Below are positions 4,177 to 55,090 of a stretch of DNA of 62,482 nt, piece by piece. The position numbers and the translations under genes are program-made. This DNA is from Acidimicrobiia bacterium. Lineage in GTDB: Bacteria; Actinomycetota; Acidimicrobiia; Spongiisociales; UBA5794. The first letter of the stretch is position 1, and each line of letters begins with the position of its first letter. The stretch covers positions 1 through 62,482 of the forward strand of contig JARFRN010000203.1 in assembly GCA_029287195.1 (NCBI GenBank), written 5' to 3'. The notes beneath the pieces are model-generated. The model saw nothing but the letters and a program-made list of their open reading frames with translations, searched no databases and was not told where the DNA came from.

Positions 4177-5609
4177 CGATCAACGTCTCCGAGGACCGGA
4201 TCACAGGACGCAATGGTGGCGACGATGTCTGCCACCAGCGAGTCGGTCATCATCGTCGGCAGCGCCTGCACGTGATTGAAGGAAGGCGTCCGGGCGTGCA
4301 TCCGCCACGGGCGCTCCCGCCCATCGGACACGATGTACATGCCGAGCTCGCCGCGAGGTGACTCCACCGCCCGGTAGGTCTCCCCCACCGGCACCTTGAA
4401 CCCGCTGGTGAATAGTTTGAAGTGATGAATCAGGGCTTCCATGGACTCATCGATCCGCTTCCGCGGCGGGGGGGTCACCTTGCGGTCCGGAGTCCGGTAG
4501 TCACCGGGCGGCATCTTTTCCAGCACCTGTTTGACGATCCCGAGCGACTGCCAGATCTCCGCAATGCGCACCTGGTAGCGGTCCCACACATCCCCGTGCT
4601 TGCCCGTCGGCACCTCGAAGTCATATTTGTCGATACCGCTGTAGGGGAAGGCTTTGCGGATATCCCAATTGATGCCGGAGGCACGAGCAATCGGACCGCT
4701 CGCGCCGAGCGCCTTGCACTCTTCCGGTGTGATGACACCGACGCCGATGGTCCGGTCCTGGAAGATGGGATTGCCGTTGAGCAACTCTTCGTACTCGGCG
4801 ACTCCTTGCGAGACCTTCTCGATGATCCGTTCGACGTCTTCCTCCCAACCGTCGGGAAGGTCGGCGGCTACTCCACCGGGCCGAATGAAGTTGTGGTTCA
4901 TGCGCAAGCCGGTTGTCTTCTCGAAGAACTCGAGGATGTACTCGCGATCGCGCAGCCCGTAGATCAGCATCGACACCGCACCGAGGTCGGTGCCCTGGGT
5001 GGCGGCCCAAACCAGGTGGCTCGACACTCGATTGAGCTCGGTGAGCAGCACCCGGATGGCCTGGCCGCGCTCGGGAATCTCGACACCGAGCAGCGACTCG
5101 ACGGCCAGCGAGAAGGCCAGTTCCATGTGCATCGGTGATAGGTAATCCATCCGAGTGACGTTGGTGGAACCCTGCATGTATGTCAGGGTCTCGGCGGTCT
5201 TCTCCATGCCGGTGTGGAGGTAGCCGATGATCGGCTTGACCCGGCGAATCGTTTCGCCGTCGAGTTCGAGGTGCAAACGCAGAACCCCGTGGGTGGAGGG
5301 GTGCTGCGGTCCCATGTTGAGGATCTGCAGCTCATCGTCGTCGGCGGGTTCCTCGAAGATGAAGTCGTCCTCGACCACCGTGCCTCGGTGGAGATCGACC
5401 GCAGGATCCTGATCCGCCTCGAGCATCTCCTGGGCGCCCTCGTCGGTGTAGCTCCGCATCCATGCTGGCTCTTCGGTACCGGCGACCCACATGTCGTGAA
5501 TCTCGCGGCGCGCCGCGGCCGACTCCGATGCCGTATCGCGCAATTCCTCAGGAGCCTCCGTGGTCGGAGCCTCGAGATCGCCGGTTACTACGTTCGGTGT
5601 ATCGCTCAT
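4173..5609 (-). CDS. nuoD: NADH-quinone oxidoreductase subunit D
   Basis: Motifs: NMGPQHPSTHGVLRL, HTGMEKT, and a C-terminal ...CDPVLGDVDR. The ORF is open to 5687, but ATG 5609 (MSDTPNVV) overlaps the nuoC stop as ATGA and is the preferred start. About 110 aa precede the GPQHP motif, which is long and acidic. Confidence 0.88.
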   Translation of the reverse strand: MSDTPNVVTGDLEAPTTEAPEELRDTASESAAARREIHDMWVAGTEEPAWMRSYTDEGAQEMLEADQDPAVDLHRGTVVEDDFIFEEPADDDELQILNMGPQHPSTHGVLRLHLELDGETIRRVKPIIGYLHTGMEKTAETLTYMQGSTNVTRMDYLSPMHMELAFSLAVESLLGVEIPERGQAIRVLLTELNRVSSHLVWAATQGTDLGAVSMLIYGLRDREYILEFFEKTTGLRMNHNFIRPGGVAADLPDGWEEDVERIIEKVSQGVAEYEELLNGNPIFQDRTIGVGVITPEECKALGASGPIARASGINWDIRKAFPYSGIDKYDFEVPTGKHGDVWDRYQVRIAEIWQSLGIVKQVLEKMPPGDYRTPDRKVTPPPRKRIDESMEALIHHFKLFTSGFKVPVGETYRAVESPRGELGMYIVSDGRERPWRMHARTPSFNHVQALPTMMTDSLVADIVATIASCDPVLGDVDR

Positions 5610-6079
5610 GTCGCCTTGGGAGATCCTTTGAAACGGACGGGTACAGAACCAACCGAGTAGTCCTTGCGCAGCGGGTGACCTTCCCAATCGTCGGGGAGGA
5701 CCAGGCGGGTCAAGTCGGGGTGGCCGGAGAAGAGAATGCCAAAGAGGTCGAAAGTCTCCCTCTCATAGAAGTTGGCGCCGGGAAACACGCCGGTAATGGT
5801 CGGCAGCGTCGGATCAGGCGCCGCAACCCCAACCCGGATGCGGAGCCGCGCCGCCGGGTCCAGACACAGCAAATTGACGACTACTTCAAAACGGGGATTG
5901 CGCCGCAGGTAGTCGACACCGCAGAGATCGATGAAGAAATCAAAGCCGGCAGTCTTGGCGGCGACGACGAAGTCCACATAGGCCTCAGCGGGAACATGAG
6001 CGACATCTTGAGGAGGGTCGAGCACCTGCTCGAATTCGACCCCGGGGAAGGCAGCGGCCAGCCGTTCGAGCATCGTCAT
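5606..6079 (-). CDS. nuoC: NADH-quinone oxidoreductase subunit C
   Basis: Motifs: [38 protein letters not shown]. The start MTMLERL at 6079 overlaps the nuoB stop (ATGA). The ORF track extends to 6157. Confidence 0.85.
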
Positions 6080-6546
6080 CGCCTGATCTCCCCCGCCATG
6101 ACCTTGTCCTGCAACATCAGGATGCCGTGTAGCAAGGACTGGGGACCAGGCGGGCATCCGGGCACATACACGTCAACGGGGACGACCTGGTCGACTCCCT
6201 GTACCAGCGCGTAGTTGTTGAACATGCCTCCTGAGGAGGCACAGGCCCCCATCGAGATGACCCACTTGGGTTCCGACATCTGGTCGTAGACCTGGCGGAG
6301 AACCGGCGCCATCTTCTGCGATACTCGACCGGCGACCACCATCAGATCGGCCTGTCGAGGAGAGGCACGGAATACCTCCATGCCAAAACGAGCCAGGTCG
6401 TTGTGGGCGGCTCCGGTGGCCATCATTTCGATGGCGCAACAGGCCAGGCCGAAAGTGGCCGCCCACATGGAACGAGTCCTCGTCCAATTGACGGCGCTCT
6501 CGTAGGTTGTGAGCAAGAACCCCGAGGGTCCCGACCGATGCGCCAT
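6076..6546 (-). CDS. nuoB: NADH-quinone oxidoreductase subunit B
   Basis: Motifs: [33 protein letters not shown] (N2 cluster cysteines). Confidence 0.92.
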
Positions 6547-6983
6547 TACGCCGCTTCCTCCTGAGTCCCGGTGGGAGCGGACTCAGCGGGGGCAACCACA
6601 CGCCGGTAACGGGCCCGTCTGGCGACATTCCAATCGAGCGCGCCGCGTTTCCACACATAAACGAGGGTTTCGACGATGAGCAGCACGAAGATCCCCATCA
6701 TCAAGATTCCGCCCCACCCGAATGACTCCCAGCGCACCGCCCACGCGAAGAGGAAAACGATCTCGACGTCGAAGATCACAAACAGCATTGCGACGAGATA
6801 GAACTTCACCGGAAAGCGTTGTACCGGCTCCTGCAACGGCACGATCCCGCACTCATATGGGGCGAGCTTCTCGGGGGTAGGCCGTTTCGGGGCAAGGAGC
6901 CCGGAAAGGGTGAGACTGACGGCGGCGAAACCCACGGCGAGGATGAAGGCGAGGGCGATCGGCAGGTAGGCGGACAACGTCAT
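6546..6983 (-). CDS. nuoA: NADH-quinone oxidoreductase subunit A
   Basis: 145 aa with 3 TM segments. Motifs: [16 protein letters not shown]. First gene of the nuo cluster, with a 1-nt overlap with nuoB (TAATG). Confidence 0.9.
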
Positions 6984-9904: not shown

Positions 9905-11152
9905 CTATTTGTTCTTGATGAGCGGATCCGGCGTGACGCGGACGATGCTCTCGATCGTCCCGTAGATCCGCTCGCTGAGACCCTTCTCCTCCGGCTCGAG
10001 CAGGTTGGCCATGACCTTGAACGCCCACTCCATCAACGGACGGGAACGCATCCCCAGGTGGGTCAAGCGGCGGATCACAGCCGGGTAGCCGATCACCATA
10101 GCGAAGCGGCGAGCCACTCTCAGGTAGTCGGCGTACATGTCGTCGATGGCCTCCGAGTATCCCCGCAGCACGGCCGGGTTGTTGGTGGCGATCGCGTCGG
10201 CGATGTAGCCGGCAGCCAGGCGAGAAGTCTCGTATGCGTAGTCGATGCCTTCACCGTTGAAAGGATTGACGGCGCCGATCGAATCACCCACAGCCAGCCA
10301 ATTGCGGCCGAAACGGGGCCCCACCGACATCGCCATCGGCAGCTTGCCTCCGATGGGTTGGCGGGTGACCGAACCGTCCGTGAGACCCCAATGATCCGGA
10401 AGCTGCTCGACGTATGCCTCGATCAAGCGGGAGGTGTTGAGATCCTTCCAGCCTTTGAAGGTCGACAGCGCACCCGCCCCGATGTTGATCTCCCCGTCGC
10501 CGAGTGGGAAGACCCAGCCGTAGCCCGGCATTGCTCGACCCTCCCGATCGCGGATGTCGAGCTGGCTCTCCAGGTAGGGGTCTGCGGAGTTGTCGCTCTT
10601 CCAGTAGCCGCGCACCGCAAGCGCAAATGGATAGTCCTTGCGCCGCTGCAGCCCGAGCTTGCGGCCAAAGCGCGACAACGAGCCGTCGGCAATGACGACC
10701 ATCTTCGGGAAGACCCTCTCGTCCTCCAGGCCTTTGCGCTTGAGGGTGACGGCTGTCAGTTCCCCGGCGTCGACCACCGGGACTGCTTCCGTCCCGGTGA
10801 GTACGGTCGCTCCCTGCTTCTCGGCAAGAGCGGCAACCTGCATATCCAGGTCGGCGCGCCGAATCACTGCACCCCAATTGGGATAGATCGAATGCTCCGG
10901 CCACGGCATCTCCAGCCGGACGTCTCCGGCGTACGCCCGCAATCCGACGATGCGGTGGTGACCGTCGAAATCGAACCCCATGTCGACGAGTTGCTTGATG
11001 GCTCGCGGGGTCAGGCCGTCACCACACGCCTTCTCGCGGGGGTACTCCTGCTTCTCGGCAACCAATACCGAGAGGCCACGCCTGGCCAGCCAGTACCCGG
11101 CGGAAGCACCGCCGGGCCCGCCACCAACCACAAGAACATCGGGATCCATCAT
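9905..11152 (-). CDS. Geranylgeranyl reductase family FAD-dependent oxidoreductase
   Basis: DVLVVGGGPGGASAGYWLARRGLSVLVAEK (Rossmann GxGxxG) followed by ACGDGLTPRA. 415 aa. This family is commonly found near nuo in Actinomycetota. Confidence 0.85.
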   Translation of the reverse strand: MMDPDVLVVGGGPGGASAGYWLARRGLSVLVAEKQEYPREKACGDGLTPRAIKQLVDMGFDFDGHHRIVGLRAYAGDVRLEMPWPEHSIYPNWGAVIRRADLDMQVAALAEKQGATVLTGTEAVPVVDAGELTAVTLKRKGLEDERVFPKMVVIADGSLSRFGRKLGLQRRKDYPFALAVRGYWKSDNSADPYLESQLDIRDREGRAMPGYGWVFPLGDGEINIGAGALSTFKGWKDLNTSRLIEAYVEQLPDHWGLTDGSVTRQPIGGKLPMAMSVGPRFGRNWLAVGDSIGAVNPFNGEGIDYAYETSRLAAGYIADAIATNNPAVLRGYSEAIDDMYADYLRVARRFAMVIGYPAVIRRLTHLGMRSRPLMEWAFKVMANLLEPEEKGLSERIYGTIESIVRVTPDPLIKNK

Positions 11153-11717: not shown

Positions 11718-12974
11718 TTAGCCCCCTTCGCCTCCGAGTAGGCCGCACGACTCCTCGGCAAGGGCTATGTCTTCTCCGCCGAAGGCCACCCGTTCGTAGA
11801 GCGAAACGGCGGCAATCTCCTCGGGACTGAGCGAGTTCTGATAGCCCGGCATGACACCGACGCCACCCACGGGCTTGCCGGTGTCCCCGTATGTCGCATC
11901 GGGCCAGTCGTTCGTTCCGATAGCCACCCACTCGACATGGTCGGAACAGGCCGAGAACGTGGCCAACACCGCACCCCCGGTAAACGCCGGGCCGACGCCT
12001 CCACCACCGCCGGCGCCGTGGCATGCCGTGCATTGGGCGTTGTAGATGGCTTGACCGAGGCTGAAGAACGGGCTGGCGTCACCGGCGCAAGCCTGGGCCT
12101 CTCCGGTCAGCGGATTGATGTCGAGCTGGCCCGACCGGCCACAATCAGGACCGTGCGGAGCCAGGCCCGCATAGAGGAGGGCGATCATGGGGATGAGGAC
12201 GAAGGAAGCGGCCAGCCACCGAGGGAACCCGGCGAAAACCGATTGCGGCTCTTCTTCGACGACGGGTTCCTCGGCGGCCGGCTCCTCCTCCGCCGCTTCC
12301 TGTGCTTCGGCAGTCGCCTCGGCATCTGCCTGCACCGCAACCGGCTCGGCGGCCGGCGGGGCAGGCGTTTCTCCCTCGGGACTCAGTCCCATCTCCACTA
12401 AGACTTCATCGAGTGGACGGCCTTCCCGCTTGGCGCGGGCTGCAGCGCTGCGCCGCAACAAGGCCTCGGGCAATTGCCCGGCACCACTCTCGGCGGCGGG
12501 TGCCGGAGTCGGGGCCGGCTCCGCAGGGGCAGCTGCAGGGGTGGGCGCAGCGACGGCGGAAGCGGCGGCTTCCCCACCCGTCCAGCCGGCGACCAGAGCG
12601 GAGACGTCCATTCCCGCCTTTCCGGCGCGAGCCCGAGCAGCGCGCTCCAGGAGATCGACGGGCACGTCGGTGTCGCCGGAGACCCGGCCCAACATCTCAT
12701 CCAGTGACCCACCGGCGGCGGCAGGAGCTGCTGCCGGTTCCGGTTGCGGAGCCACTGGTTCCGGCTCACGAGCTGCGGATGGTGCCGGCGCTGCCGGTTG
12801 CGCCACCGCAGGTGGTGCTTGCTCGGTGTCGCCGCCACCGGGTGCGCCGGCCCACCCCGCCACCAGCCCGGCTGCGTCAACGCCCTGCGCCGTGGCCCGA
12901 GCCCGGGCGGCACGTTCGAGCAGGTCGGCGGGTACACCGGTTTCCTCCGCGATCTGGTTCAGCAGTTCGTCCAT
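11718..12974 (-). CDS. Membrane-anchored mono-haem class I cytochrome c with three cytoplasmic HeH-like repeats
   Basis: The start MDELLNQ at 12974 overlaps the upstream stop by 1 nt (TAATG); the track ORF extension to 13244 is Arg/Cys-rich junk. Three N-terminal repeats (..VPxDLLERAARARA..). One TM segment (WLAASFVLIPMIALLYAGL). CTACH haem motif and GVMPGY Met ligand. Confidence 0.8.
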   Translation of the reverse strand: MDELLNQIAEETGVPADLLERAARARATAQGVDAAGLVAGWAGAPGGGDTEQAPPAVAQPAAPAPSAAREPEPVAPQPEPAAAPAAAGGSLDEMLGRVSGDTDVPVDLLERAARARAGKAGMDVSALVAGWTGGEAAASAVAAPTPAAAPAEPAPTPAPAAESGAGQLPEALLRRSAAARAKREGRPLDEVLVEMGLSPEGETPAPPAAEPVAVQADAEATAEAQEAAEEEPAAEEPVVEEEPQSVFAGFPRWLAASFVLIPMIALLYAGLAPHGPDCGRSGQLDINPLTGEAQACAGDASPFFSLGQAIYNAQCTACHGAGGGGGVGPAFTGGAVLATFSACSDHVEWVAIGTNDWPDATYGDTGKPVGGVGVMPGYQNSLSPEEIAAVSLYERVAFGGEDIALAEESCGLLGGEGG

Positions 12975-14935
12975 TACCTCAACCCGTTGATGTAGGAAAC
13001 AAGCGCAGCGATCTCGGATTGAGACAGATGCTCGTAGGACGGCATCGTCGACCACGGCCGATCGCGGCGCGGCTCGGTGAGCTGCTCGGCAGTCACGCCA
13101 CCGCGACTGGCGACATGCTTCAGATCCGGCCCCATTCTCGCCACACCCAGCAGGACCGGCTGCTCGTGGGCGTAGTCGCCGGCAACGCTCACGGGACCCA
13201 GTCCCAGATCCGTCACAATCGGGCGCACCGCCTGCGTATGGCAATAGGCGCAGCCTTCGCGCACGTAGATGTCACGACCGATGGTGACGTCGGCCCCTTC
13301 CACATAGATGCGCGACTCATCAGCCAGGATCGTCGGCTGGGCGGACTCAGCCTCCTGCGCAGGCAACACGACAACCATCAGGAAGACGGCGACTCCGGTG
13401 ACCAGGGCAATGGAGCCGACACGCAGCCAACCCGGCTCGGCCGATTCCGGCACCTCGAGTTCGACGTTGACTTCCTGCCCGCCGCCGTCCAGTTCGGGAT
13501 CGAGGGCCAATACGGCGTCACGATCCTCGGACAGGAACCACGCAACCGTGGCATAAGAGAACAGCAAGGCCTGTGCGACCGCAATCGTCATCAAGCCAAC
13601 CATGCGGGCGATCGCAAACCCATAGTTCCACATTGCATCAGCGGTCGACTCAAATCCGTCGCCGACCGCAGGGACGCCGTCGGAACCGCCGGCACCCCAG
13701 GTGAGCCCGGCGACGAGACCACCCGCCAGCATGGCGAACACGGCCACAGCCAGGCCCCCGAGAGTGAGCCAGAGGTGCCACTGCTGGACCCTGCGGGCAT
13801 CGGCTGAAACCATCGGCGGCGCTACGTGATAGACATACGCAAACAACCAAACGCTGAAGGCACCGAGCAATACGAGGAGCTCCGTGCCGTAGACCCAGTC
13901 TGTGAAGCCGATGATCCCGCCGGGTGCTCGCAGCGCCTGCCACAGGTTGAGCACCGGCAATGCTGCAAACAATCCGAGACCGAGGTAAACCAACCGCAGC
14001 GACGGTCGGTCCTTCTCCCTGACAACTTCGAGCCGACTACGAATCGTTGAATTCAGGTCCACGATGATCGTGGCGACCGGCAGAAGTAGAGCCATCGAGA
14101 ACATAACGCCGATGGTTTCCAGCCAGTCCGGGACTGCGGTGAAGGTGAGTTCGGCCGTCCCGGTGAATGCCCAGGCGATTCCGAGGCCCCAGAAGCCCAC
14201 AACCGACATCCGGGTTGCCCGGAAGTGGGCAAGGCCGACGAGACGCGGCACGAGGAAATACATCACACCGGCGCCCGCCGTGGCAAACCACATACCGGTG
14301 ATCCCCGCTTTGTAGAAGCCGGCCAGGAGTGCTGTGTTGATGCCGTGCAAGACCGGGGGTTGCGACCAGAACAGAGTTGCCAGCAGCGACAGCATCGTGA
14401 GATTGCCGATGAAGTGGAGCCCCACCAGCCAGACGACGGCGGCCAGCATGAACCACTCAGCGGGGCTACGGCGTCGTCCGTTGCGCCGCGACAGGGTGCG
14501 GGCCAACGAGTGCGCCATGGCCATCATCCCCAGCAACACCATCAAGTCGGCGAGCGGCGGCGCCTCGAGATAGCGGATGCCTTCGCTCTGTCCGGCGAGG
14601 ATGGCGACGCCGCCGATGGCGTAGCCGATAGACATCAGTATGAACCCGATCCGGGCGACGATGGGATCAGTCAGCTTTTCGCCGGTGAGACGAGGTACTG
14701 CGAAATACATGGCGCCGATCAGCCCGAGGGTCAACCAGCCGTACATAAGGAAGTGGACGGCGGCGGGGCGAAGACGTCCGTAGGAGATGGGACCCCAACC
14801 GCTGAGCAAATCGGCGGAGACGTATTGGACACTGGCAATAGCCAGCATGGCAACACCGACAATCAGGAAACCGAGAGAGGCAGCGAGATGATGACGGGCG
14901 ACGCTCTGCGAGGAGGCCGCCGTTTCGGAGATCAT
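12974..14935 (-). CDS. CcoN-CcoO fusion-like protein. The cbb3 subunit-I-like 12-TM domain lacks the canonical His ligands and is fused to a CcoO/FixO-like mono-haem c domain
   Basis: ATG 14935 (MISETAASS) has AGGA 8 nt upstream. CcoN-like blocks: YGRLRPAAVHF, AGVMYFLVPR, FWGLGIAWAFTGTAELTFTAVPDW, FTDWVYGTELLVLLGA. C-terminal CcoO-like blocks: GRDIYVREGCAYCHTQAVRP, ARMGPDL, STMPSY. Confidence 0.75.
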   Translation of the reverse strand: MISETAASSQSVARHHLAASLGFLIVGVAMLAIASVQYVSADLLSGWGPISYGRLRPAAVHFLMYGWLTLGLIGAMYFAVPRLTGEKLTDPIVARIGFILMSIGYAIGGVAILAGQSEGIRYLEAPPLADLMVLLGMMAMAHSLARTLSRRNGRRRSPAEWFMLAAVVWLVGLHFIGNLTMLSLLATLFWSQPPVLHGINTALLAGFYKAGITGMWFATAGAGVMYFLVPRLVGLAHFRATRMSVVGFWGLGIAWAFTGTAELTFTAVPDWLETIGVMFSMALLLPVATIIVDLNSTIRSRLEVVREKDRPSLRLVYLGLGLFAALPVLNLWQALRAPGGIIGFTDWVYGTELLVLLGAFSVWLFAYVYHVAPPMVSADARRVQQWHLWLTLGGLAVAVFAMLAGGLVAGLTWGAGGSDGVPAVGDGFESTADAMWNYGFAIARMVGLMTIAVAQALLFSYATVAWFLSEDRDAVLALDPELDGGGQEVNVELEVPESAEPGWLRVGSIALVTGVAVFLMVVVLPAQEAESAQPTILADESRIYVEGADVTIGRDIYVREGCAYCHTQAVRPIVTDLGLGPVSVAGDYAHEQPVLLGVARMGPDLKHVASRGGVTAEQLTEPRRDRPWSTMPSYEHLSQSEIAALVSYINGLR

Positions 14936-15286
14936 CTTGTCCTGAGAAACTTCGGCAGTCACCCTTTGCCTAGTCCCTTCCTCGCTTCGTCGCCGAGTCC
15001 GTCCGAGTCGGCAGTCCGGCAGAATAGCCCGGAGCGCCACAGATTCCCGAACTCGACTTGGTGGCCGGTTGCAGGTGGTGGCGTGACAGGGTTGCCGCCG
15101 GGGGCACGCTTGCCGAGGGCACCGCAACACATGCTTCGACCTGTCCCAATTTCACCGACGCGCAGAGGCGTGGCAGATGATTCCACGCCGCCGTTGCGGG
15201 ACCACTATGGTTGCGGGCAGCCGTCGGCTGGGTAGGCCATACGCGGCTTAGAATGGCGCAACTTCGACAAGATATGAATCGGATCG

Positions 15287-15895
15287 ATGGCTGAAGGAAG
15301 AGACAGGAACTTCACCCGAGGCGTCGCGGCCATGGCGATTGGGCTGGGCCTAGCGATCCTTGGTGCGTTGTGGGCGCATTTCGCCGAGCTCTCCGAATTC
15401 GACGAGGTTGGCCGGGAGATCTATCCGGCAATTCCGCGAGGCTGGCAGTGGGTCCTGCTCGGGCAGCTGGTATCGCTCGGCGGGGTTCTCGTTCTGATGG
15501 CAGGCATGGCGCTGGCATTCCTCTACGAGAAGAAGATGACCTGGGCCCGCTCCGCCATCGGGGCATTGCTCTTCACCTCACTGATGATCATCCTCTTCGG
15601 CGTCATCCCCAATCAATGGCTCACCTATACCCAGGCGGTGTGGGAGTGGACCGACCAGAAACTCTGGATACAGATCCCACCCGAGTTGTTGGGCGGCAAC
15701 GAGGTCAACATCTCTGCCGCAGCTTTGAAAGACATCATTTCGGGCACATATGTGCTCATTGCCACCGGTGCAGTTGCGGCCGCCATGATCGCCTGGCAGC
15801 GGCGTGACGAGCTCCAGGCCGCTCGAGACAAGAAAAGAGCAGAGAAGAAATCGGTGTCGAGCTACGGGCGGCCGCTGCAGAAGGTCGAGAGGTAG
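15287..15895 (+). CDS. Hypothetical 4-TM membrane protein (first gene of the bc-type operon)
   Basis: 202 aa with four hydrophobic segments and a basic C-terminal tail. Its stop is 2 nt before the ferredoxin gene. I recognise no family. Confidence 0.6.
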   Translation: MAEGRDRNFTRGVAAMAIGLGLAILGALWAHFAELSEFDEVGREIYPAIPRGWQWVLLGQLVSLGGVLVLMAGMALAFLYEKKMTWARSAIGALLFTSLMIILFGVIPNQWLTYTQAVWEWTDQKLWIQIPPELLGGNEVNISAAALKDIISGTYVLIATGAVAAAMIAWQRRDELQAARDKKRAEKKSVSSYGRPLQKVER

Positions 15896-15897
15896 GA

Positions 15898-16341
15898 ATG
15901 GCAAACGAGGCTTGGACGGAACTCATCGATACGCGAGAGGACTATCAGCTCGCAGCGGTCGACGGCTCCTACCTGACTGCCGCCGTGAAGCCCAAGCAGT
16001 TCCTCCACATCAACGAAGCAGAGTGCATCCTGTGCGAGGGGTGTGTCGACATCTGTCCCTGGAAATGCATCCACTACCTTTCGCTCGATGCTATCGAGGA
16101 AGCCGCCAACGTCGAAGACCCGAAGGGCAAGCCGGAGAATGGGGGGTTCTTCGTGGTCGACGAGGACGCTTGTACCCGCTGTGCTCTCTGCATCGATCGT
16201 TGTCCAACCGGTGTCATCTCTCTGGGCAAGTTCACGGGATCTGTCGCGGACCGCACCGGAGACTTCGCAGACAAGCCCTGGGAGTACGACACGGGCGACC
16301 GCGACTTCAAGAACGGCTATATGTACGGCGTACGTTGGTAA
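15898..16341 (+). CDS. 2x[4Fe-4S] ferredoxin-domain protein
   Basis: Two CxxCxxCxxxCP motifs: CILCEGCVDICP and CTRCALCIDRCP. 147 aa. Confidence 0.85.
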   Translation: MANEAWTELIDTREDYQLAAVDGSYLTAAVKPKQFLHINEAECILCEGCVDICPWKCIHYLSLDAIEEAANVEDPKGKPENGGFFVVDEDACTRCALCIDRCPTGVISLGKFTGSVADRTGDFADKPWEYDTGDRDFKNGYMYGVRW

Positions 16342-16366
16342 CAGGAAATCGGACTGAGGAGACGAG

Positions 16367-17143
16367 GTGGCAAACGGAAACGGAAGGGTCGGGCTGAAGG
16401 AGCGTTTCGCTCAGGCCGGCGATCACATCCGCACCAGCCAGGTGTGGAGCAGTATCTTCCGGCCCGGATCTCCATTCCGCCACGGCTACACCGACTCGCC
16501 GCGTAACCGATCCTACGTCATCATGAACAACGTGCTGTATCACCTTCATCCGGTGAAGGTGAAGAGGCACGCCGTCCGTCTCTCCTATACCTTGTGTCTC
16601 GGCGGGCTGAGCTTCTTCCTATTCATCTTGCTGACGATTACCGGCATCTTCCTGATGTTCTACTACCGGCCGACCTCGCCTCAGGCCTATCTCGATATCC
16701 AGGCCCTGTCTACAGACGTAGCCTTCGGGCAGTTGGTGCGCAATATGCACCGTTGGGGTGCCCACCTGATGGTTCTCACCGTGTTTCTCCACATGGCCCG
16801 GGTCTTCTACCACGGTGCCTACAAACCGCCGCGCGAGTTCAACTGGGTCGTCGGAATCGTCCTATTGGTCTTGACCCTGCTGCTTTCGTTCACCGGTTAC
16901 CTGCTGCCGTGGGATCAGCTGGCACTGTGGGCAGTGACGGTCGGTAGCAATATGGGTGCATATGCGCCGGTGATCGGCGATCAAGTGTCGTTTGCCCTGA
17001 TCGGGGGCGTCCAGATCACACCCGACACGCTGTTGCGGTGGTACGTGCTCCACGTCCTGTTCCTGCCGTTCATCATCGTCGTCTTCATGGCCGTCCACTT
17101 CTGGAGGGTGCGCAAAGACGGTGGCATTTCGGGGCCGCTCTAG
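16367..17143 (+). CDS. Cytochrome b6-like protein (N-terminal half of a split cytochrome b)
   Basis: Four His in two TM pairs (NMHRWGAHLMVLTVFLHMARVF; WYVLHVLFLPFIIVVFMAVHFWR). LPWDQ motif. YTLCLGGLSFF matches the b6/Firmicutes CLGG cysteine that binds haem ci (Cys codon 16595-16597). GTG start after AGGAG. Confidence 0.9.
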   Translation: MANGNGRVGLKERFAQAGDHIRTSQVWSSIFRPGSPFRHGYTDSPRNRSYVIMNNVLYHLHPVKVKRHAVRLSYTLCLGGLSFFLFILLTITGIFLMFYYRPTSPQAYLDIQALSTDVAFGQLVRNMHRWGAHLMVLTVFLHMARVFYHGAYKPPREFNWVVGIVLLVLTLLLSFTGYLLPWDQLALWAVTVGSNMGAYAPVIGDQVSFALIGGVQITPDTLLRWYVLHVLFLPFIIVVFMAVHFWRVRKDGGISGPL

Positions 17144-18060
17144 TGGCAGGTCTTCCCGAACACCTGCTCCGCCGGTCGGCCGAGGCACGGGCCAAGGCCG
17201 AAGGACGTGACGTCGAAGAGGTGCTTGCCGAATTGAAGGGCGAAGCTCCCCCGGCCCCTGAGCAAGAGACTCCTGCGGCTGCTCCCGAGCCGGCACCGGC
17301 CGCACCGGCCCCCGAACCCACCCCCACCCGGGCGGCCGCGCCTGCACCCGCAGCCGGGCCGGTACGCGATTTGGAGGCCGAGTCTACCGGCCTCGGTGTG
17401 CCCGTTCCCCTGCTGAGACGGGCAATGGAAGGCCGCGCCCGCAAAGAGGGGAAGCCGGTCCCGGCCATGGCGGGTGCCGCCCCGGCCGCGGCAACGGCGG
17501 CACCGGCGACCAGTGCCCCGGCCCCTGCGGCGCCTGCTGCTGCGGCCCCGGCGATCCCCGAGGGCGTTACCACCCAGCGGCTGCTCACCGTCGTCAAGGC
17601 GGGAGCTATTCAGCAGGTCAAGTCATCACCACAGGACAAGGTCAACGTCTGGCCGCATCTGCTGGCGATCGAATTTGTTGCGTTGATGGTTGTCACTGCG
17701 GGATTGATCGTCTTCTCCGTGTTCGTCGATGCTCCCCTGCTCGAGTTCGCCAATTTCAACGAGCAACCGAACCCGTCGAAGGCTCCGTGGTACTTCCTTG
17801 GTCTGCAGGAGTTGCTCTCATACTTCGACCCGCAGGTCGCCGGCGTAATCATCCCCACATTCGGCCTGATCGGCCTCGCCATCATCCCTTACGTCGACAA
17901 GAACCCTGCAGTGAAGCCATCCGATCGCAAGCTCGCCATCATGATCTTCAGCTTCTTCATTTTCGCCTCCGCGATATTGACCACATACGGCTCGTTCTTC
18001 CGCGGCCCGGGATTCAACTTCTCGTTCCCGTGGGTAGACGGAATCTTCTTCGACTTCTGA
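17143..18060 (+). CDS. Cytochrome bc subunit IV-like (C-terminal cytochrome b half) with two N-terminal HeH-like repeats
   Basis: GTG 17143 overlaps the b6 stop by 1 nt (TAGTG). The C-terminal 3-TM part carries APWYFLGLQELL (the PEWY-equivalent Qo motif). The N-terminus has two copies of ..LLRRSAEARAKAEG.. separated by an Ala/Pro-rich linker. Confidence 0.85.
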   Translation: MAGLPEHLLRRSAEARAKAEGRDVEEVLAELKGEAPPAPEQETPAAAPEPAPAAPAPEPTPTRAAAPAPAAGPVRDLEAESTGLGVPVPLLRRAMEGRARKEGKPVPAMAGAAPAAATAAPATSAPAPAAPAAAAPAIPEGVTTQRLLTVVKAGAIQQVKSSPQDKVNVWPHLLAIEFVALMVVTAGLIVFSVFVDAPLLEFANFNEQPNPSKAPWYFLGLQELLSYFDPQVAGVIIPTFGLIGLAIIPYVDKNPAVKPSDRKLAIMIFSFFIFASAILTTYGSFFRGPGFNFSFPWVDGIFFDF

Positions 18061-18082
18061 TGGAAAAGGACTCAGCCAGAGA

Positions 18083-18931
18083 ATGAGTACAACAGCCATC
18101 TTTGTGATAGCCCTCATCGGAGGGGGGATCCTGGTCGCCGCCGGGATCTTCGCCGTTGCGTGGCGCCGCGGCCCGAGCGCCGAGCCCATCGTCGGTGAAT
18201 TCGACAAGGAAGCGGCGAAGCGAGATATGTCGGCTCGCCCGGCGCCTGAACCTGCGGTCACGACAGCTGAGGCCGTAGCGCCGGAAACGATGCCGGCGGA
18301 GCCGGTACCGCCCTCGATAGAAGACCAGCGAGAGCCGGTCTCCGCCGACGACCTCGGCGTAACCCGCCGCAAGTTCCTCAATCGCGCCGCGCTCGGCCTG
18401 TTTGGGGGCGGATTCCTCGGATCGCTCGGAATCGCCATGCTCGCCTTCCTGTGGCCGAAGCTGAAGGGCGGCTTCGGCAGCAAGATCAATGCCGGCCCGA
18501 TTGCGGCACTCCGCAGTCAGGTGATCCTGGGGGACGGCAGCATCAAGCCGCTGTTCTTCCCCGAGGCGCAGGCCTGGTTGGTCCCGATGGAAGCCTCCCT
18601 GATGCCGGGCAGCTCATTCGATGGCCTCCCCGTGTTGGCCGGGGCCGATGGAGGAGAAACGGGTTTGATGGCGCTGTGGCAGAAGTGCGTTCATCTGGGA
18701 TGCCGGGTTCCCGAGTGCGCCTCGTCGCAAGGCTTCGAGTGCCCGTGCCACGGATCCAAGTACAACTACCACGGGGAATATGACTCCGGGCCGGCTCCGC
18801 GCAACCTCGACCGGTTTGCCCTAGAAGAAGACGCCCAGGGGAACCTGATCATCGACACCGGAACAGTCCTCGAGACACCACGCGCGGTCGTCAAGACGAT
18901 CGCCTACCCGCAGGGACCGAGTTGCTTGTGA
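18083..18931 (+). CDS. Rieske 2Fe-2S subunit
   Basis: CVHLGC...CPCHGS cluster-binding boxes. Internal twin-arginine-like TRRKFLN after an N-terminal TM segment, in the style of actinobacterial QcrA. Confidence 0.9.
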   Translation: MSTTAIFVIALIGGGILVAAGIFAVAWRRGPSAEPIVGEFDKEAAKRDMSARPAPEPAVTTAEAVAPETMPAEPVPPSIEDQREPVSADDLGVTRRKFLNRAALGLFGGGFLGSLGIAMLAFLWPKLKGGFGSKINAGPIAALRSQVILGDGSIKPLFFPEAQAWLVPMEASLMPGSSFDGLPVLAGADGGETGLMALWQKCVHLGCRVPECASSQGFECPCHGSKYNYHGEYDSGPAPRNLDRFALEEDAQGNLIIDTGTVLETPRAVVKTIAYPQGPSCL

Positions 18932-20526
18932 TCGCATCACTGCCCCAGGTCATCGCAGTCGCCGAGAGCAGCGAACCCGTCGGGCCGAGCAACGTCGGTC
19001 TCGGCAGCGTGGTCTTGACGATTGCCGTAGTCATCTTCCTGGGGTGGATCGGCTACCTCGTCATCAACAGCAGGCGGAAGACCCGGCCTCCCGAGGAGGC
19101 CCCACCCAATCAAGAGTTCTTCATGGACGATGAAGGACTCGAGAACAACAGGCTCACCCGCGTCCTCACCGCTGCGGTGATTGCTGCCGGGGTGCTCGCC
19201 ATCGTGATGCCCATCTACTTCGTGAGCGAGACCAGCAGACAGGAGGCCGCAGCCGAGGAAATCAACGAGGACTACATCCACTTTGGTGAGGAGTGGTGGG
19301 TCAAGTTCGAGTGCGGCGCATGTCACGGTCCGGACGGCGGAGGTGGCGCAGCTGAGATCGTCGAGGAACGCTCCGGCCTCAGCGCGAGTTGGGCCGCCCC
19401 AGCCAACAACGACGTGTTCTTCCGCTACAGCGAGGATGAAGTACGGCACTGGATCGTCAACGGCCGGGCCGGCACCCCGATGCCGGCCAGCGGTCTCGAA
19501 GGTGGCGGCGCAATGACGGTGCAGGAAGTCGACCAGGTCATCGCATACCTCCGCAGCCTGCAGATCTCGCAGATGGAGGCGTTCGAAAAGGTAGATGACG
19601 AGGTAGCCGCGGCACTGGACAGGATCGCCGGCGGGGCCGCAACCATCGAGGCGCGAATCGTGGTAGAGAACGCCAAGCTGGCCGATATCGAGGATGGTCC
19701 GGCCCAGTTCGAGGTCATCCGCAGCATGCCGGATGATATCGATGCGCTGCTGAGCGGTCCGGGCACGTGCACCGTCGAGTCGGCGGCGCTGGTCGGCGCC
19801 GCCTGCGCCGAAGAGGGGCCCGATGCGGATCGTGACGGCCTCACCGACGACGTAGAGCCCGCCCTGACGGCACTGGCGCAGCTGGCCTACGAGACGCTGA
19901 CCAAGCGAAGCGTCGATCCGGTGACTCTGGAGGAGACAACGGTCTACGACGACGAATTCGACCTCGAGTTCTCGCCTACCTCACCGTTCTCGATGTCGGA
20001 TGCAACCGGTACGCCGATCCCGGACCTCGAATCGGCACGTGCCTTCATCTCTCACCTCGATACCAAGCATCTGGAATGGTCGCTACTCACCACCCGCAAC
20101 GAACAGTTTGCCGAGCCTGTGATCGACGGTATCGCATTCCTCGAGGATTCGCTGGAGCGTCGCGCCTGGGATGTTGATTTCGATCAGGTTGCTGCCGCCA
20201 CCGGACTGACGCGCACCGAAGCGGAGCGATCGGTTGGGTTGTTCAACGCGTACTGTGCGCGCTGCCACACCGCCGGCTACTCAGCGGGTGTCGAGTTCGA
20301 GCAAGAGCCGGGTTCGGGAGCGTGGGCTCCGGCACTCACCGACGGGCGTACGGTCGTGCAGTTCCCGGACGCGCAGGATCACATCGATTTCATCATCAAC
20401 GGGGCAAATGCCTCCGAACGTTACGGCGTGAACGGGCTGAGCGGCGTCGGTGGTATGCCCGCATTCGGTGCGGTACTCAGCCTCGAGGACATCGAGTTGA
20501 TCGTGAAGTACGAGAGGTCTCTGTAA
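18922..20526 (+). CDS. Membrane-anchored di-haem cytochrome c with a large insertion between the haem domains
   Basis: CGACHG and CARCHT motifs about 330 aa apart. One N-terminal TM segment. C-terminal GGMPAF Met ligand. The start is uncertain (TTG 18922 or GTG 18928). Confidence 0.8.
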   Translation: MLVIASLPQVIAVAESSEPVGPSNVGLGSVVLTIAVVIFLGWIGYLVINSRRKTRPPEEAPPNQEFFMDDEGLENNRLTRVLTAAVIAAGVLAIVMPIYFVSETSRQEAAAEEINEDYIHFGEEWWVKFECGACHGPDGGGGAAEIVEERSGLSASWAAPANNDVFFRYSEDEVRHWIVNGRAGTPMPASGLEGGGAMTVQEVDQVIAYLRSLQISQMEAFEKVDDEVAAALDRIAGGAATIEARIVVENAKLADIEDGPAQFEVIRSMPDDIDALLSGPGTCTVESAALVGAACAEEGPDADRDGLTDDVEPALTALAQLAYETLTKRSVDPVTLEETTVYDDEFDLEFSPTSPFSMSDATGTPIPDLESARAFISHLDTKHLEWSLLTTRNEQFAEPVIDGIAFLEDSLERRAWDVDFDQVAAATGLTRTEAERSVGLFNAYCARCHTAGYSAGVEFEQEPGSGAWAPALTDGRTVVQFPDAQDHIDFIINGANASERYGVNGLSGVGGMPAFGAVLSLEDIELIVKYERSL

Positions 20527-21038
20527 TGGCTTCGCTCCGCACACTCAGACAACGGTTGGTCGAGGACGAACGCGGACTGAGCGCCCTGGAGTGGTTTGGC
20601 ATCTTTGCGGCCATCGTCAGCATCATCGTGTTCATTCCCGCGGTGCGGTCGGTTTTGGGTGCGGCTTTTGATGCAACCCTCGGCCAAAAGGATGACAACG
20701 GCGACCTCACCGGCACCGCCATTGCCTTGCGCGGCATCCTCATCACCATCGTCTCGATCGTGGCGTTCGTCGGCACCGGCTTCCTGCTGCTGTATACGAA
20801 CCTGGGAACCCGCCTTGCCTTTCTCGTCACCGGAGCGGCAACGTTCGGTTGGATGATCGTCGGCTCGATACTGTTCGTTGTGTATGCACCTCGCGGCTTG
20901 CGCCCCGCCAACCTGCAAGGCCTGAATTCGTTTCAGATACGAATTCCGGCAATAGCACTCACTCTGGCATCGCTGATTCTGTTCCTGATGTTCGTTGCTG
21001 CGCTGGATCGGTACGAAAAGGAACAGCCCGAGATCTAG
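20526..21038 (+). CDS. Hypothetical 4-TM membrane protein (last gene of the bc-type operon)
   Basis: ATG 20526 overlaps the cytochrome c stop (TAATG). The protein starts MASLRTLRQRLVEDERGLSALEWFGIFAAIV... and has four hydrophobic segments. The track ORF start at 20322 overlaps the previous gene. Confidence 0.6.
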   Translation: MASLRTLRQRLVEDERGLSALEWFGIFAAIVSIIVFIPAVRSVLGAAFDATLGQKDDNGDLTGTAIALRGILITIVSIVAFVGTGFLLLYTNLGTRLAFLVTGAATFGWMIVGSILFVVYAPRGLRPANLQGLNSFQIRIPAIALTLASLILFLMFVAALDRYEKEQPEI

Positions 21039-22372: not shown

Positions 22373-22999
22373 TTAGCCGCCCAAACGGCCTTCGTAGTAC
22401 GCCAGGATCTGCAGCTCGGTTGATAGATCGACTCGGCGTACCTCGACCCCTGCAGGGCGTTTCAGGACCGCAGGCGCGAAGTTGAGTATCGAGCGCACCC
22501 CGGCCTCCACGAAGCGGTCTGCGACCTCCTGGGCCGCTTTCACCGGCGTCGCGATGACCCCTATAGACACGTCCCTGGCTGCAACGATGGTGCCGATCGT
22601 CTCATAGGGCTCAACCGTCAGGGAGTCGATTCGGGTCCCTATCTTGGTGGGATCGGTATCGAAGAGCGCGACTACGTTGAATCCCGACTCGTTGAACCCC
22701 GGGTACATCGTCAGGGCGTTTCCCAGGTTGCCTGCACCGGCAATCGCAACCCGGTGTTCGCGGGTGAGGCCGAGTTCGCGACGCAGCACAGCCCGCAGCT
22801 CGGCAACGTCGTACCCGACACCGCGCACCCCGGGAGGATCGACGTAGGAGAGATCCTTGCGAACCTGAGCAGGGTTCACTCCCGCACTTTCCGCCAACTG
22901 CTCGGACGAACACGTCACCTGGTCGGGGGCTACCTCGCTCACACACCGCAGATAGAGTGGAAGCCGAGCCACGGTCGCAGTCGGAATGGAGCCTTTCAT
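22373..22999 (-). CDS. rex: Redox-sensing transcriptional repressor Rex
   Basis: Motifs: ATVARLPLYLRCV, QVRKDLSY, GVRGVGYDV, IAGAGNLGNAL, SILNFAP. The start MKGSIPT at 22999 gives 208 aa. The track ORF extends to 23152. Confidence 0.9.
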   Translation of the reverse strand: MKGSIPTATVARLPLYLRCVSEVAPDQVTCSSEQLAESAGVNPAQVRKDLSYVDPPGVRGVGYDVAELRAVLRRELGLTREHRVAIAGAGNLGNALTMYPGFNESGFNVVALFDTDPTKIGTRIDSLTVEPYETIGTIVAARDVSIGVIATPVKAAQEVADRFVEAGVRSILNFAPAVLKRPAGVEVRRVDLSTELQILAYYEGRLGG

Positions 23000-23063
23000 C
23001 GCTGCGAGATTAGTGCGCCTACGGGGACGCAAAATCTCACCCGGCCGCGCCTTTGAAGCGGGG

Positions 23064-23318
23064 CTAGAACCACGCCCGCAACGCCGCTCCGTATGCCTGC
23101 CACTGGCTGATTCGTCCTTCTGCGAGGACGTTGCCGCGCCGGTTGAGGACAACCGGGATCCGCATGTTGTAGTTGTCCGTCAGCTCCGGCTCATCGCGAA
23201 TATCCACTGCGATGAGCTCGACTCCGAGCCTCTTGGTCGCTCGCTCCATGATGGGAAGGACCTCATCGCACAGACCGCAACCCGGCTTGGTCAGATACTG
23301 GATTCGCCGATAGCGCAT
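23064..23318 (-). CDS. Glutaredoxin-like (DUF836-type) thioredoxin-fold protein
   Basis: 84 aa with a KPGCGLCDE CxxC motif. AGGAGAAGGA RBS upstream. Confidence 0.7.
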   Translation of the reverse strand: MRYRRIQYLTKPGCGLCDEVLPIMERATKRLGVELIAVDIRDEPELTDNYNMRIPVVLNRRGNVLAEGRISQWQAYGAALRAWF

Positions 23319-23420: not shown

Positions 23421-24254
23421 CTAGCCCGGCAAGATTTGCAGACCAGGCCTACCCGAACGAATCGTGACCGCAGTGCCCGCAGCCAGCGGGTATGAGTCGA
23501 CGGCGCTGCCGTTGCGGACTGCAATCGCAATCTGGCCGTAGCTGTCGATGTGCAGCAGGCCCTCTCCCTCATCGACATTGCCGTAGGCATCCACCCACTC
23601 GATGCCGAATTCGGCGGATGCGATCTTGAGGACGATGTCGGTGCCGGGAGCGATTCCGACCAATTGCAGATCCTGCGGGGTGATGTTGAGCTGGCAATTG
23701 CCGAAGTGATCCACCCACAGCACCTCGCCGACTACCGCGTCTTCGCTGTGCTCGACGAGCGGCAGCATCAAGGGAACAACGGAATCGGGATCCATCTCGG
23801 GACCCAGCTCTCGCAGCGTCGCCTGGCCGGAAGCAATCACCGCTGCAGCAGGGCCAAATAGGTCTCTTCCGTGGAACGTGGCACCCGGAGCCGGCAACAT
23901 CACCTCCGGGTTCTCTATCGAAACGACCTTGTCGGCACCCCCGACCATGGCAACCGCCGGAGCCAGCAAACCGTTGTCCGGACCGATCAGTGTCCCCCAC
24001 TCGGTGCCGGTTGCTATTGCCTTGCGCTCGGTGCCGACCCCGGGATCGATCACCGCAAGGGCAACCCCCTGCGGCAGGTACTGAATCGCCCGCATCAACG
24101 CCAGGGCCCCGGCCCGGATATCGCCCTGGACGAAATCATGGCCCACATCGATGACTCGCACTTCCGGGGCGATGCGGGCGATCACGCCGTGCACAACGCC
24201 GACAAACTCGTCATCACGGCCGAAGTCGGACAAGAAGGAGATGGGGAGACTCAT
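23421..24254 (-). CDS. SAM hydrolase / SAM hydroxide adenosyltransferase family protein (DUF62)
   Basis: Motifs: ISFLSDFGRDDEFVGVVHGVI, VIDPGVGTERKAIA, GPDNGLL. Confidence 0.85.
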   Translation of the reverse strand: MSLPISFLSDFGRDDEFVGVVHGVIARIAPEVRVIDVGHDFVQGDIRAGALALMRAIQYLPQGVALAVIDPGVGTERKAIATGTEWGTLIGPDNGLLAPAVAMVGGADKVVSIENPEVMLPAPGATFHGRDLFGPAAAVIASGQATLRELGPEMDPDSVVPLMLPLVEHSEDAVVGEVLWVDHFGNCQLNITPQDLQLVGIAPGTDIVLKIASAEFGIEWVDAYGNVDEGEGLLHIDSYGQIAIAVRNGSAVDSYPLAAGTAVTIRSGRPGLQILPG

Positions 24255-55069: not shown

Positions 55070-55090
55070 TGACGGGCAGGTCACCTCCTC

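Follow-up and report, generated by a model that had tools for sequence, protein, structure and literature searches.

Oxidases of the cbb3 type are encoded as CcoNO(Q)P (Pseudomonas stutzeri, structure 3MK7) or with CcoN and CcoO fused into one protein (PRK14485), and in the bc1-cbb3 supercomplexes 6XKW and 8SMR they occur together with a Rieske/cytochrome b complex. The APWY clade, which has members with a split cytochrome b and a CxGG motif, is phylogenetically mixed, includes Ilumatobacter, is biochemically uncharacterised and contains complexes suspected of reverse operation (Kao and Hunte 2014, PMC4122944); among its members are Geobacter ExtOPQ, the p-cresol (Pcm) bc-like complex, and complexes of Planctomycetes and Nitrospirae. 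A separate subunit IV also occurs in cytochrome b6f and in the b6c complexes of Bacillus and Heliobacteria, and in the phylum Actinomycetota QcrCAB-CtaCDEF forms the bcc-aa3 complex of Mycobacterium and Corynebacterium. We analyzed a window of 62,482 nucleotides from an Acidimicrobiia bacterium (positions 1 to 62,482 of contig JARFRN010000203.1, assembly GCA_029287195.1; G+C content 62-65%), in which positions 11718-21038 hold two divergent operons. The leftward operon encodes a CcoN-CcoO-like protein that has lost every metal ligand of the oxidase, together with a cytochrome c, and the rightward operon encodes a b6c-type complex of the APWY clade that looks like the usual complex III (menaquinol:cytochrome c oxidoreductase) of Acidimicrobiia.

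All nine genes of the initial annotation, with their domains and tight spacing, were recovered by analyzing open reading frames (ORFs), start-codon context and domain scans. On the minus strand, the CcoN-CcoO fusion-like gene (12974-14935 from an ATG, or 12974-14962 from a GTG; Pfam COX1 and FixO, one CAYCH) overlaps the gene for a monohaem cytochrome c (11718-12974; 418 aa, CTACH, one transmembrane segment) by one nucleotide in the sequence TAATG. Translation from the GTG at 14962 gives a CcoNO-like protein of 662 aa, and from the ATG at 14935 one of 653 aa. The gene probably starts at the GTG, since orthologues keep the residues TAEVSQD upstream of the ATG and the closest of them (P0001, 91% identical) is 662 aa long. 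The shared divergent control region proposed initially does exist; given the GTG start, its bounds are corrected from 14936-15286 to 14963-15286.

The plus-strand (bc) operon begins with mem1 (15287-15895), which encodes a protein of 202 aa with four transmembrane segments, a pI of 9.2 and no family assignment. After a gap of 2 nucleotides follows a ferredoxin-like gene (15898-16341; 147 aa, two CxxCxxCxxxCP motifs), and after a further 25 nucleotides the cytochrome b6 gene (16367-17143; 258 aa), which overlaps the subunit IV gene (17143-18060; 305 aa) by 1 nucleotide. The Rieske gene (18083-18931; 282 aa, CVHLGC...CPCHGS) starts 22 nucleotides downstream and overlaps the gene for a dihaem cytochrome c (18922-20526; 534 aa, CGACH and CARCH) by 10 nucleotides; the latter overlaps by 1 nucleotide the last gene of the operon, mem2 (20526-21038), for a second protein with four transmembrane segments and no family (170 aa). 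As had been noted from the sequence, this cluster fits none of the qcrCAB-ctaE, ccoNOQP and petCA/petBD layouts, and the corresponding NCBIfam cut-offs are missed by wide margins: QcrA 21.5 vs 275 bits, QcrB 115.8 vs 500, QcrC 19.7 vs 200, ccoN (TIGR00780) 122 vs 583 and ccoO (TIGR00781) 71 vs 201. The fused N/O model PRK14485 is likewise missed (201 vs 1080 bits). Neither ccoQ nor ccoGHIS was found nearby.

By its sequence and predicted fold, the CcoNO-like protein is a true homologue of C-family haem-copper oxidases. Its Pfam matches are COX1 (2.9e-29; 102.7 bits, cut-off 34.8) and FixO (3.2e-20), and phmmer aligns it with 6XKW_n and 3MK7_A at about 1e-22; the identity of its CcoN part to canonical cbb3 CcoN is approximately 21-25%. 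The architecture comprises the 12-helix transmembrane fold of haem-copper oxidases, a linker transmembrane helix and a CcoO-type haem-c domain. An AlphaFold2 (AF2) model has a pTM of 0.87 and a pLDDT of about 90 in the N-domain. The best Foldseek matches of this model are all cbb3 CcoN proteins (target-normalised TM score 0.84-0.89), with a TM score of 0.89 and an rmsd of 2.6-3.0 Å against 3MK7.

The description of this CcoN as ligand-less is borne out by alignment to P. stutzeri CcoN (3MK7_A). The haem b ligands H60 and H347 are replaced by A and L, the haem b3 ligand H345 by T, and the CuB ligands H207, H257 and H258 by A, A and E. The cross-link Tyr (Y251 in P. stutzeri) is absent as well; across the ligand-less family its column shows I, F, G, L, V or A. 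Judged from this alignment, the CcoN part should be unable to reduce O2 or NO, because all ligands of haem b, haem b3 and CuB are lost. We therefore agree with the initial annotation that the protein cannot be a conventional oxidase, and its public annotation as 'cbb3-type cytochrome c oxidase subunit I/II' cannot be right by the same alignment. The annotation had further claimed that the terminal partner of the complex cannot be a conventional oxidase; this overreaches, since a dead CcoN is silent on an aa3 or bd oxidase encoded elsewhere. In the O-domain, the haem-c motif CAYCH (13238-13252, minus strand) is followed further downstream by the Met ligand motif WSTMP, and the C, C, H and Met ligand residues are each conserved in more than 90% of the ligand-less set, conservation falling short of 100% because unfused CcoN-like sequences lack the O domain. 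The electron-carrying sites left in the leftward module would thus be only the CcoO haem-c domain and its partner cytochrome c.

Ligand loss characterizes a family, not a single gene. Among 98 aligned CcoN homologues, 92 have lost the six histidines, two keep a subset and four keep all of them; canonical controls (P0088 and P0095-P0097) retain all six. Every CcoN copy adjacent to a bc operon, in the 42 GTDB species loci that carry one, has undergone the loss, with the exception of one metagenomic subclade (represented by locus L002) that retains H257 alone. At the former ligand positions, A, G, S, V, T, R and Q replace one another freely. Where conservation reaches at least 90% in the ligand-less N-domains, the residue is nearly always a structural Gly, Trp, Pro or Arg that canonical CcoN conserves too, and at this threshold no new conserved polar site was found among the aligned homologues. 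The two homologues that keep a subset, P0091 and P0092 (L089, 279-1760, and L090), show an intermediate ligand pattern and are followed by a FixO gene: H60 is kept in both, H347 is kept in P0091 as well, and the CuB and haem b3 ligands are replaced by N, Q, R and Y. They may represent intermediates in the evolution of the family, or a variant family of their own. The canonical CcoN P0096 was considered as an active ancestor at the same locus and rejected, as it sits in an unrelated sox-type cluster.

The CcoNO-like gene is under purifying selection. Compared with the 91%-identical orthologue, its dN/dS is 0.066 overall, with 0.074 in the N-domain and 0.086 in the O-domain; in the same comparison the values are 0.085 for subunit IV, 0.091 for the cytochrome c, and 0.035 for both b6 and the ferredoxin-like protein. 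In more than 40 species the reading frame, approximately 650 codons long, is unbroken. In one MAG (metagenome-assembled genome; locus L005, 5962-7832) the gene matches two overlapping frames, which may reflect a frameshift or an assembly error.

Genes of the rightward operon encode a split cytochrome b, with Pfam Cytochrome_B and Cytochrom_B_C on separate genes. The b6 protein matches Cytochrome_B (8.5e-49) and passes the NCBIfam ExtP model (307.5 bits, cut-off 290), and its closest solved relatives are cyanobacterial and chloroplast cytochromes b6 (1VF5_A, 2e-49), actinobacterial QcrB being matched at about 1e-23. The four His ligands of haems bL and bH align with those of 1VF5_A. Cys77 in the sequence LCLGG aligns with Cys35 of YCLGG, which makes it the predicted attachment site of haem ci/cn. 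The C-terminus (...RKDGGISGPL) resembles PetB, and an N-terminal extension of approximately 50 aa, basic (pI 10.9), is missing from the ExtP model. Subunit IV matches Cytochrom_B_C (8.4e-8), has three transmembrane helices and carries the Qo motif APWY (KAPWYF, aa 214-217; 17782-17793, plus strand) that defines membership in the APWY clade; the same motif is found in subunit IV of loci L001-L003, L041 and L085. The ExtQ cut-off is missed (55 vs 150 bits).

The Rieske protein (Pfam Rieske, 8.5e-8) scores best with the b6f PetC models of NCBIfam, below their cut-offs, and matches in the PDB two recently deposited Rieske domains (9RK4, 9RK3) and PetC. It has two hydrophobic segments, the second preceded by a Tat-like RRKFL. 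The dihaem cytochrome c is membrane-anchored by two transmembrane helices and carries a helical insert of approximately 200 aa between its haem domains. Domain scans of the operon genes detected neither PetA (cytochrome f) nor PetG/L/M/N. The length of the dihaem protein varies among related loci, in a way that is confounded with phylogeny: it is approximately 100-130 residues longer, by the insert between the haem domains, in loci that carry CcoN (490-534 aa), and reaches 404 aa in Microthrix (cf. L041, 12437-13651) and 306 aa in the distant L085 lineage.

The ferredoxin-like protein belongs to the Pfam Fer4 families, with NuoI as the best, sub-threshold NCBIfam match (1e-9). With a pI of 4.4 the protein is acidic; its C-terminal tail, ...FKNGY.YG.RW, is conserved, and it has relatives in 2235 protein clusters. 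In accord with its first description as a soluble Fe-S protein, it has no transmembrane segment or signal peptide. Its invariable position in the operon, on the other hand, suggests a bound subunit and not a free ferredoxin. In conservation the gene ranks second within the operon, and no operon copy lacks it, whether CcoN is there or not.

We scanned one genome per GTDB species with the b6 protein and found relatives in at least 555 species genomes. In the best 80 of these loci the b6 protein is 73-98% identical to that of the window, and nearly all of them are labelled Acidimicrobiia or unclassified Actinomycetota, the few other labels being probably mis-binned. Among the taxa represented are Ilumatobacteraceae, Microthrix, Iamiaceae, Spongiisociaceae and Desertimonas. 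The order mem1-ferredoxin-b6-subunit IV-Rieske-dihaem c(-mem2) is kept in practically all of the best 80 loci, with mem1 always in first place and the ferredoxin gene immediately after it; in Microthrix, nuoA follows on the operon without a break. The bc operon thus looks like the housekeeping complex III of the class. In two Ilumatobacteraceae MAGs (L039 and L073) a b6 gene 75-76% identical to that of the window lies at approximately 10001-10768 with no other bc-operon gene within 10 kb, and may be a second, orphan b6 paralogue.

The CcoN-like gene was sought by a profile search of six-frame translations, for which 60 loci had enough upstream sequence to be informative. It is present in 34 of them, on the opposite strand in every case, and in all but one of the 34 only mem1 separates it from the ferredoxin gene. 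Dozens of species-level genomes repeat this layout, which is thus far from a chance arrangement. The two operons are therefore co-conserved, as initially proposed, in 34 of 60 species loci, and the nine-gene set is not obligate, for no CcoN-like gene was found within 10 kb in the other 26, which include Ilumatobacteraceae and Microthrix. These 26 loci have the seven bc genes and, divergent from them, no more than a cytochrome c, as is seen in Microthrix. Identity of the ferredoxin-like protein to that of the window is 63-88% where CcoN is present (group A) and 47-56% where it is absent (group B), and because this split is clean, presence and absence of CcoN appear to follow clades.

Approximately half of the CcoN-positive loci have separate CcoN-like and CcoO-like genes instead of a fusion, and even at a CcoN identity of only 25-40% the nine genes are still found together. 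A lineage at greater distance (b6 69% and ferredoxin 38% identical) has a ligand-less CcoN and a small CcoO, which are set 5 kb apart from the bc operon by genes for cytochrome c maturation. Because this lineage still has the ligand-less CcoN, secondary loss in the Ilumatobacteraceae/Microthrix clade is the more parsimonious explanation of its absence there.

The monohaem cytochrome c (Pfam Cytochrom_C, 1.3e-7; Cytochrome_CBB3, 3.4e-7), which has orthologues in L001-L003, consists of a cytoplasmic N-terminal region, one transmembrane helix (approximately aa 254-272) and a class I haem-c domain with CTACH at aa 315. Its N-terminal region contains three copies of a 30-residue helix-loop-helix motif (12846-12935, 12576-12665 and 12384-12473, minus strand) joined by Pro/Ala-rich linkers, and two further copies are found in the N-terminal cytoplasmic region of subunit IV (17152-17241 and 17398-17475, plus strand). 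The general form of the motif is (V/I)PE.LL.R(S/A)A.ARA.A.G....E.LA.W.G, and that of the cytochrome c copies (V/L)P..LL.R(S/A)A.ARA...G......L(V/A)..(W/M).G. It occurs in one to three copies at the cytoplasmic N-termini of subunit IV, of the monohaem cytochrome c and, in loci with unfused N and O, of the separate CcoO-like protein. In a profile search of the six-frame ORFs of 88 loci, all matches were to subunit IV (47), to the monohaem cytochrome c (64) or to fragments of their genes (11). The repeat common to both operons that was noticed initially is thus a specific protein motif; as DNA, no repeat of 24 nt or more was detected between the operons. No credible Pfam match was found for the motif even at E-values up to 10. 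In general architecture it may resemble the peripheral-subunit-binding domains of E2 proteins. The motif may dock a common cytoplasmic partner, for which the acidic ferredoxin-like subunit is the obvious candidate.

Mitochondrial complex III offers a conceptual parallel for an enzyme turned subunit: its Core 1 and Core 2 proteins derive from the MPP peptidase, a former enzyme kept as a non-catalytic subunit. Their fold is unrelated to that of CcoN, they are soluble and not membrane-embedded, and the parallel is an analogy only, for a structural role that the CcoN-like protein may have. We favour the reading that a catalytically dead cbb3 is kept as a haem-c scaffold of a bc supercomplex and relays electrons to an oxidase elsewhere, and we give it about an even chance of being right. 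A cbb3 oxidase that was once coupled to the bc complex would have lost its redox centre and retained the 12-helix fold. The resulting pseudo-cbb3 module would keep one or two additional c-type haems in place beside the bc complex, giving a bc-'pseudo-cbb3' supercomplex in which the Rieske protein and the membrane-anchored dihaem cytochrome c form the high-potential branch. Electrons would pass from the dihaem protein through the CcoO haem and the CcoP-like monohaem cytochrome c to the real terminal oxidase, encoded elsewhere. The helix-loop-helix motif on subunit IV, the cytochrome c and the separate CcoO may help their association. The two proteins with four transmembrane segments and the acidic cytoplasmic 2x[4Fe-4S] protein would be lineage-specific additions to complex III. 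The most likely docking place of the Fe-S protein is the n-side, close to haem ci and the b6 extension, since this protein is acidic (pI 4.4) and the extension basic (pI 10.9); once docked, it would connect a redox partner in the cytoplasm with the site of quinone reduction.

Several observations weigh against this scaffold reading. Over the distances at which b6 remains 82-91% identical, the CcoN(O)-like proteins are 25-40% identical, so that the CcoN part diverges much faster; the bc operon occurs without the CcoN module in 26 of 60 loci, which makes that module dispensable for complex III as such; and the N-terminal motif persists in genomes without CcoN, which makes it not specific to a contact between bc and CcoN. 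No terminal oxidase, the proposed electron sink, was found among the 45 called genes of the window that were scanned (published surveys of Acidimicrobiia genomes usually report coxABCD), and no shared palindrome or operator was found in the intergenic region by aligning close relatives. Contact between the bc complex and the CcoNO-like protein is something that we infer, and a protein of 12 helices is an expensive way to anchor a single haem, a hint that it has some other function as well. Part of this evidence would suit operons that are neighbours for historical reasons only, with the CcoNO-like protein and the cytochrome c acting independently, e.g., as a separate c-type station with another enzyme or an external donor or acceptor. 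The operon copies that lack the module, the 5 kb of maturation genes that part the two modules in one lineage and the want of a common operator all fit such independence. Against it stand the constant orientation and immediate adjacency in 34 of 34 gene-bearing loci, even at 25% identity, and a motif that is exclusive to subunits of both operons, and we regard it as unlikely. The costly anchor may point elsewhere, to a cofactor-less CcoN that gained a non-redox membrane function such as a redox-gated proton or cation pathway or a gas or redox sensor. Purifying selection across the 12-helix domain (dN/dS 0.074), a fold predicted with high confidence to be retained and the needlessly large anchor for a single haem-c domain speak for this idea; yet the family has no conserved polar or charged intramembrane residues of its own, the conserved ones being those of canonical CcoN, and the former ligand positions vary freely, which leaves the idea distinctly unlikely. 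That the gene is a functionless, decaying relic, a pseudogene in progress, would account for the lost catalytic ligands, the fast divergence relative to the bc core and the disappearance of the gene from a whole clade. Such decay is very improbable in view of a frame intact in more than 40 species, dN/dS values like those of the other subunits, and the conservation of structural residues, CxxCH and the Met ligand; we rejected the pseudogene hypothesis on the strength of the dN/dS values (overall and N-domain) and of the frame conservation.

A different emphasis would place the key novelty in the bc part, with a bound 2x[4Fe-4S] subunit making a ferredoxin-linked enzyme and the cbb3 relic being a side issue. 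Low-potential electrons from the cytoplasm would enter menaquinone via haem ci, or the low-potential branch would run outward, as proposed for 'reverse' or bifurcating complexes of the APWY clade and of anammox. Ferredoxin:quinone reductase activity has long been proposed for cytochrome b6f. In the Acidimicrobiia operon, the ferredoxin gene is second in conservation and accompanies every operon copy irrespective of CcoN, b6 keeps the Cys predicted to bind haem ci, and the b6 extension co-occurs with the ferredoxin and is absent from the Geobacter ExtP model, whose cluster lacks a ferredoxin. Reverse operation was suggested for APWY complexes by Kao and Hunte (PMC4122944). Transfer from Qo to an n-side ferredoxin would oppose the membrane potential, however, and the cbb3-like module would be left unexplained. 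We hold this emphasis as a tentative and rather doubtful possibility, compatible with the scaffold reading and not exclusive of it. A bolder combination, which we likewise consider doubtful but not negligible, would have the catalytic subunit of a haem-copper oxidase exapted, free of all cofactors, into a new supercomplex in a large, uncultured part of Acidimicrobiia, around a bc core with hard-wired exchange between ferredoxin and haem ci, the motif on its flexible linkers recruiting a common partner to both modules.

The leftward module thus shares with cbb3 systems the homology of CcoN with its predicted 12-helix fold (TM score 0.89), the CxxCH and Met ligand of CcoO, and a further c-type cytochrome gene after it. 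It differs in lacking the six His and the cross-link Tyr, from which we would expect no haem b, haem b3, CuB or oxygen chemistry, and in a third subunit that is monohaem and carries cytoplasmic motif repeats. The association with a Rieske/cytochrome b complex, seen in the supercomplexes 6XKW and 8SMR, is known here from gene neighbourhood. The bc complex has in common with other members of the APWY clade the split into b6 and subunit IV, the APWY Qo motif and the CxGG haem-ci motif, and it is distinguished by its apparent role as the housekeeping complex III of a whole class and by the ferredoxin-like subunit, the two proteins with four transmembrane segments, the b6 extension and the N-terminal motif repeats. 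The Geobacter Ext cluster encodes multihaem cytochromes (ExtM/N/S) and the ExtI porin and no ferredoxin, and none of those cytochromes or the porin are found here; the name of ExtP, 'selenite/tellurite reduction operon b-type cytochrome', which automatic annotation would assign to the b6 protein, is therefore misleading for it. ExtM was examined as a known case of a ferredoxin paired with an APWY-type bc complex and rejected, being a 12-haem cytochrome.

Likeness to cytochrome b6f and to the b6c complexes of Bacillus and Heliobacteria lies in the closest solved cytochrome b, with Cys35, the four His and the C-terminus aligning, and in the separate subunit IV; b6f is also the source of the idea that a ferredoxin feeds haem ci. 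In contrast to b6f, a dihaem class I cytochrome c and two unrelated proteins with four transmembrane segments are found in place of cytochrome f and PetG/L/M/N, the Qo motif is APWY and not PEWY or PDWY, and a ferredoxin-like protein is encoded in the operon. The bcc-aa3 complex belongs to the same phylum, has a membrane-anchored dihaem c that replaces soluble cytochrome c and is alike in principle as a complex III hard-wired to an oxidase-type module. QcrB, however, is unsplit and of another clade, the gene order differs, and the oxidase-type partner in our locus is of the C-family and catalytically dead.

The initial annotation had presented the cluster as a distinct module. The cytochrome b of its bc part, however, belongs to the APWY clade, which was described in 2014 with Ilumatobacter included and is itself uncharacterised (PMC4122944). 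No description of the ligand-less CcoN family or of the Acidimicrobiia ferredoxin-bc operon was found in the full-text literature, a search that left out most papers in subscription journals. In a 2024 survey of the haem-copper oxidase superfamily, the active-site histidines were completely conserved in all families except gNOR (PMC11214002). A large clade under purifying selection that has lost all six His and both haems would be a new state of this superfamily, and the ligand-less CcoN would be a clear case of a respiratory enzyme turned pseudoenzyme. High-affinity microaerobic respiration inferred from the CcoNO-like gene in Acidimicrobiia MAGs of marine, sponge, soil and freshwater origin would then be wrong. 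A whole class of actinobacteria that is abundant in the environment appears to have as its complex III a b6-type enzyme, so far uncharacterised, with a 2x[4Fe-4S] subunit built in beside the haem-ci site. This enzyme would be a tractable system for asking whether a ferredoxin can talk to haem ci and how APWY-type Qo sites work. If true, hard-wired exchange between ferredoxin and haem ci would mean that the ferredoxin:quinone route, a matter of long debate for b6f, exists in nature in an obligatory form.

The divergent intergenic region (14963-15286) contains conserved blocks near each start in the alignment of close relatives: GGCAGAATAGCC (15016-15027), ATTCCCGAA (15043-15051), CACTATGGTTGC (15203-15214) and, before mem1, GCTTAGAATG (15248-15257), which includes a -10-like hexamer, TAGAAT. 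Co-regulation of the two operons is plausible from this architecture. A Rex-type redox regulator (22373-23152, minus strand; Pfam Put_DNA-bind_N and CoA_binding) is a candidate regulator because its place near the bc operon is conserved in related loci (L001, L002 and L003). A search for the Rex operator TGTGAA-N6-TTCACA with up to 3 mismatches gave no site in the divergent intergenic region, and matches across the whole window were fewer than expected by chance.

Other neighbours of the cluster include the start of a complex I operon (2177-6983, minus strand), with nuoA (6546-6983), nuoB (6076-6546), nuoE (3451-4176) and nuoF (2177-3454); between nuoB and nuoE lies a gene for a NuoD-containing protein of 504 aa (4173-5687, minus strand), long enough for a NuoC-NuoD fusion. 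The nuo genes also adjoin the bc/cco-like region in L001, L085 and, directly downstream, L041. A geranylgeranyl-reductase-like FAD protein (9905-11152, minus strand) is found beside the cluster also in L001, L002, L041, L085 and L087, and by its position could be a menaquinone side-chain reductase (MenJ-like). A SAM hydroxide adenosyltransferase (23421-24254, minus strand) is a neighbour of the bc operon in L001-L003 as well. Farther away, a 329-aa protein (35918-36907, plus strand) has a ThiS/MoaD-like ubiquitin fold in its first 78 residues only, the rest having no family match. Finally, at 53822-56245 (plus strand) a gene for a Mur-ligase-domain protein is followed by one for a CapC-domain protein of 384 aa with two CapC stretches, a pair that resembles CapB/CapC of poly-gamma-glutamate synthesis.

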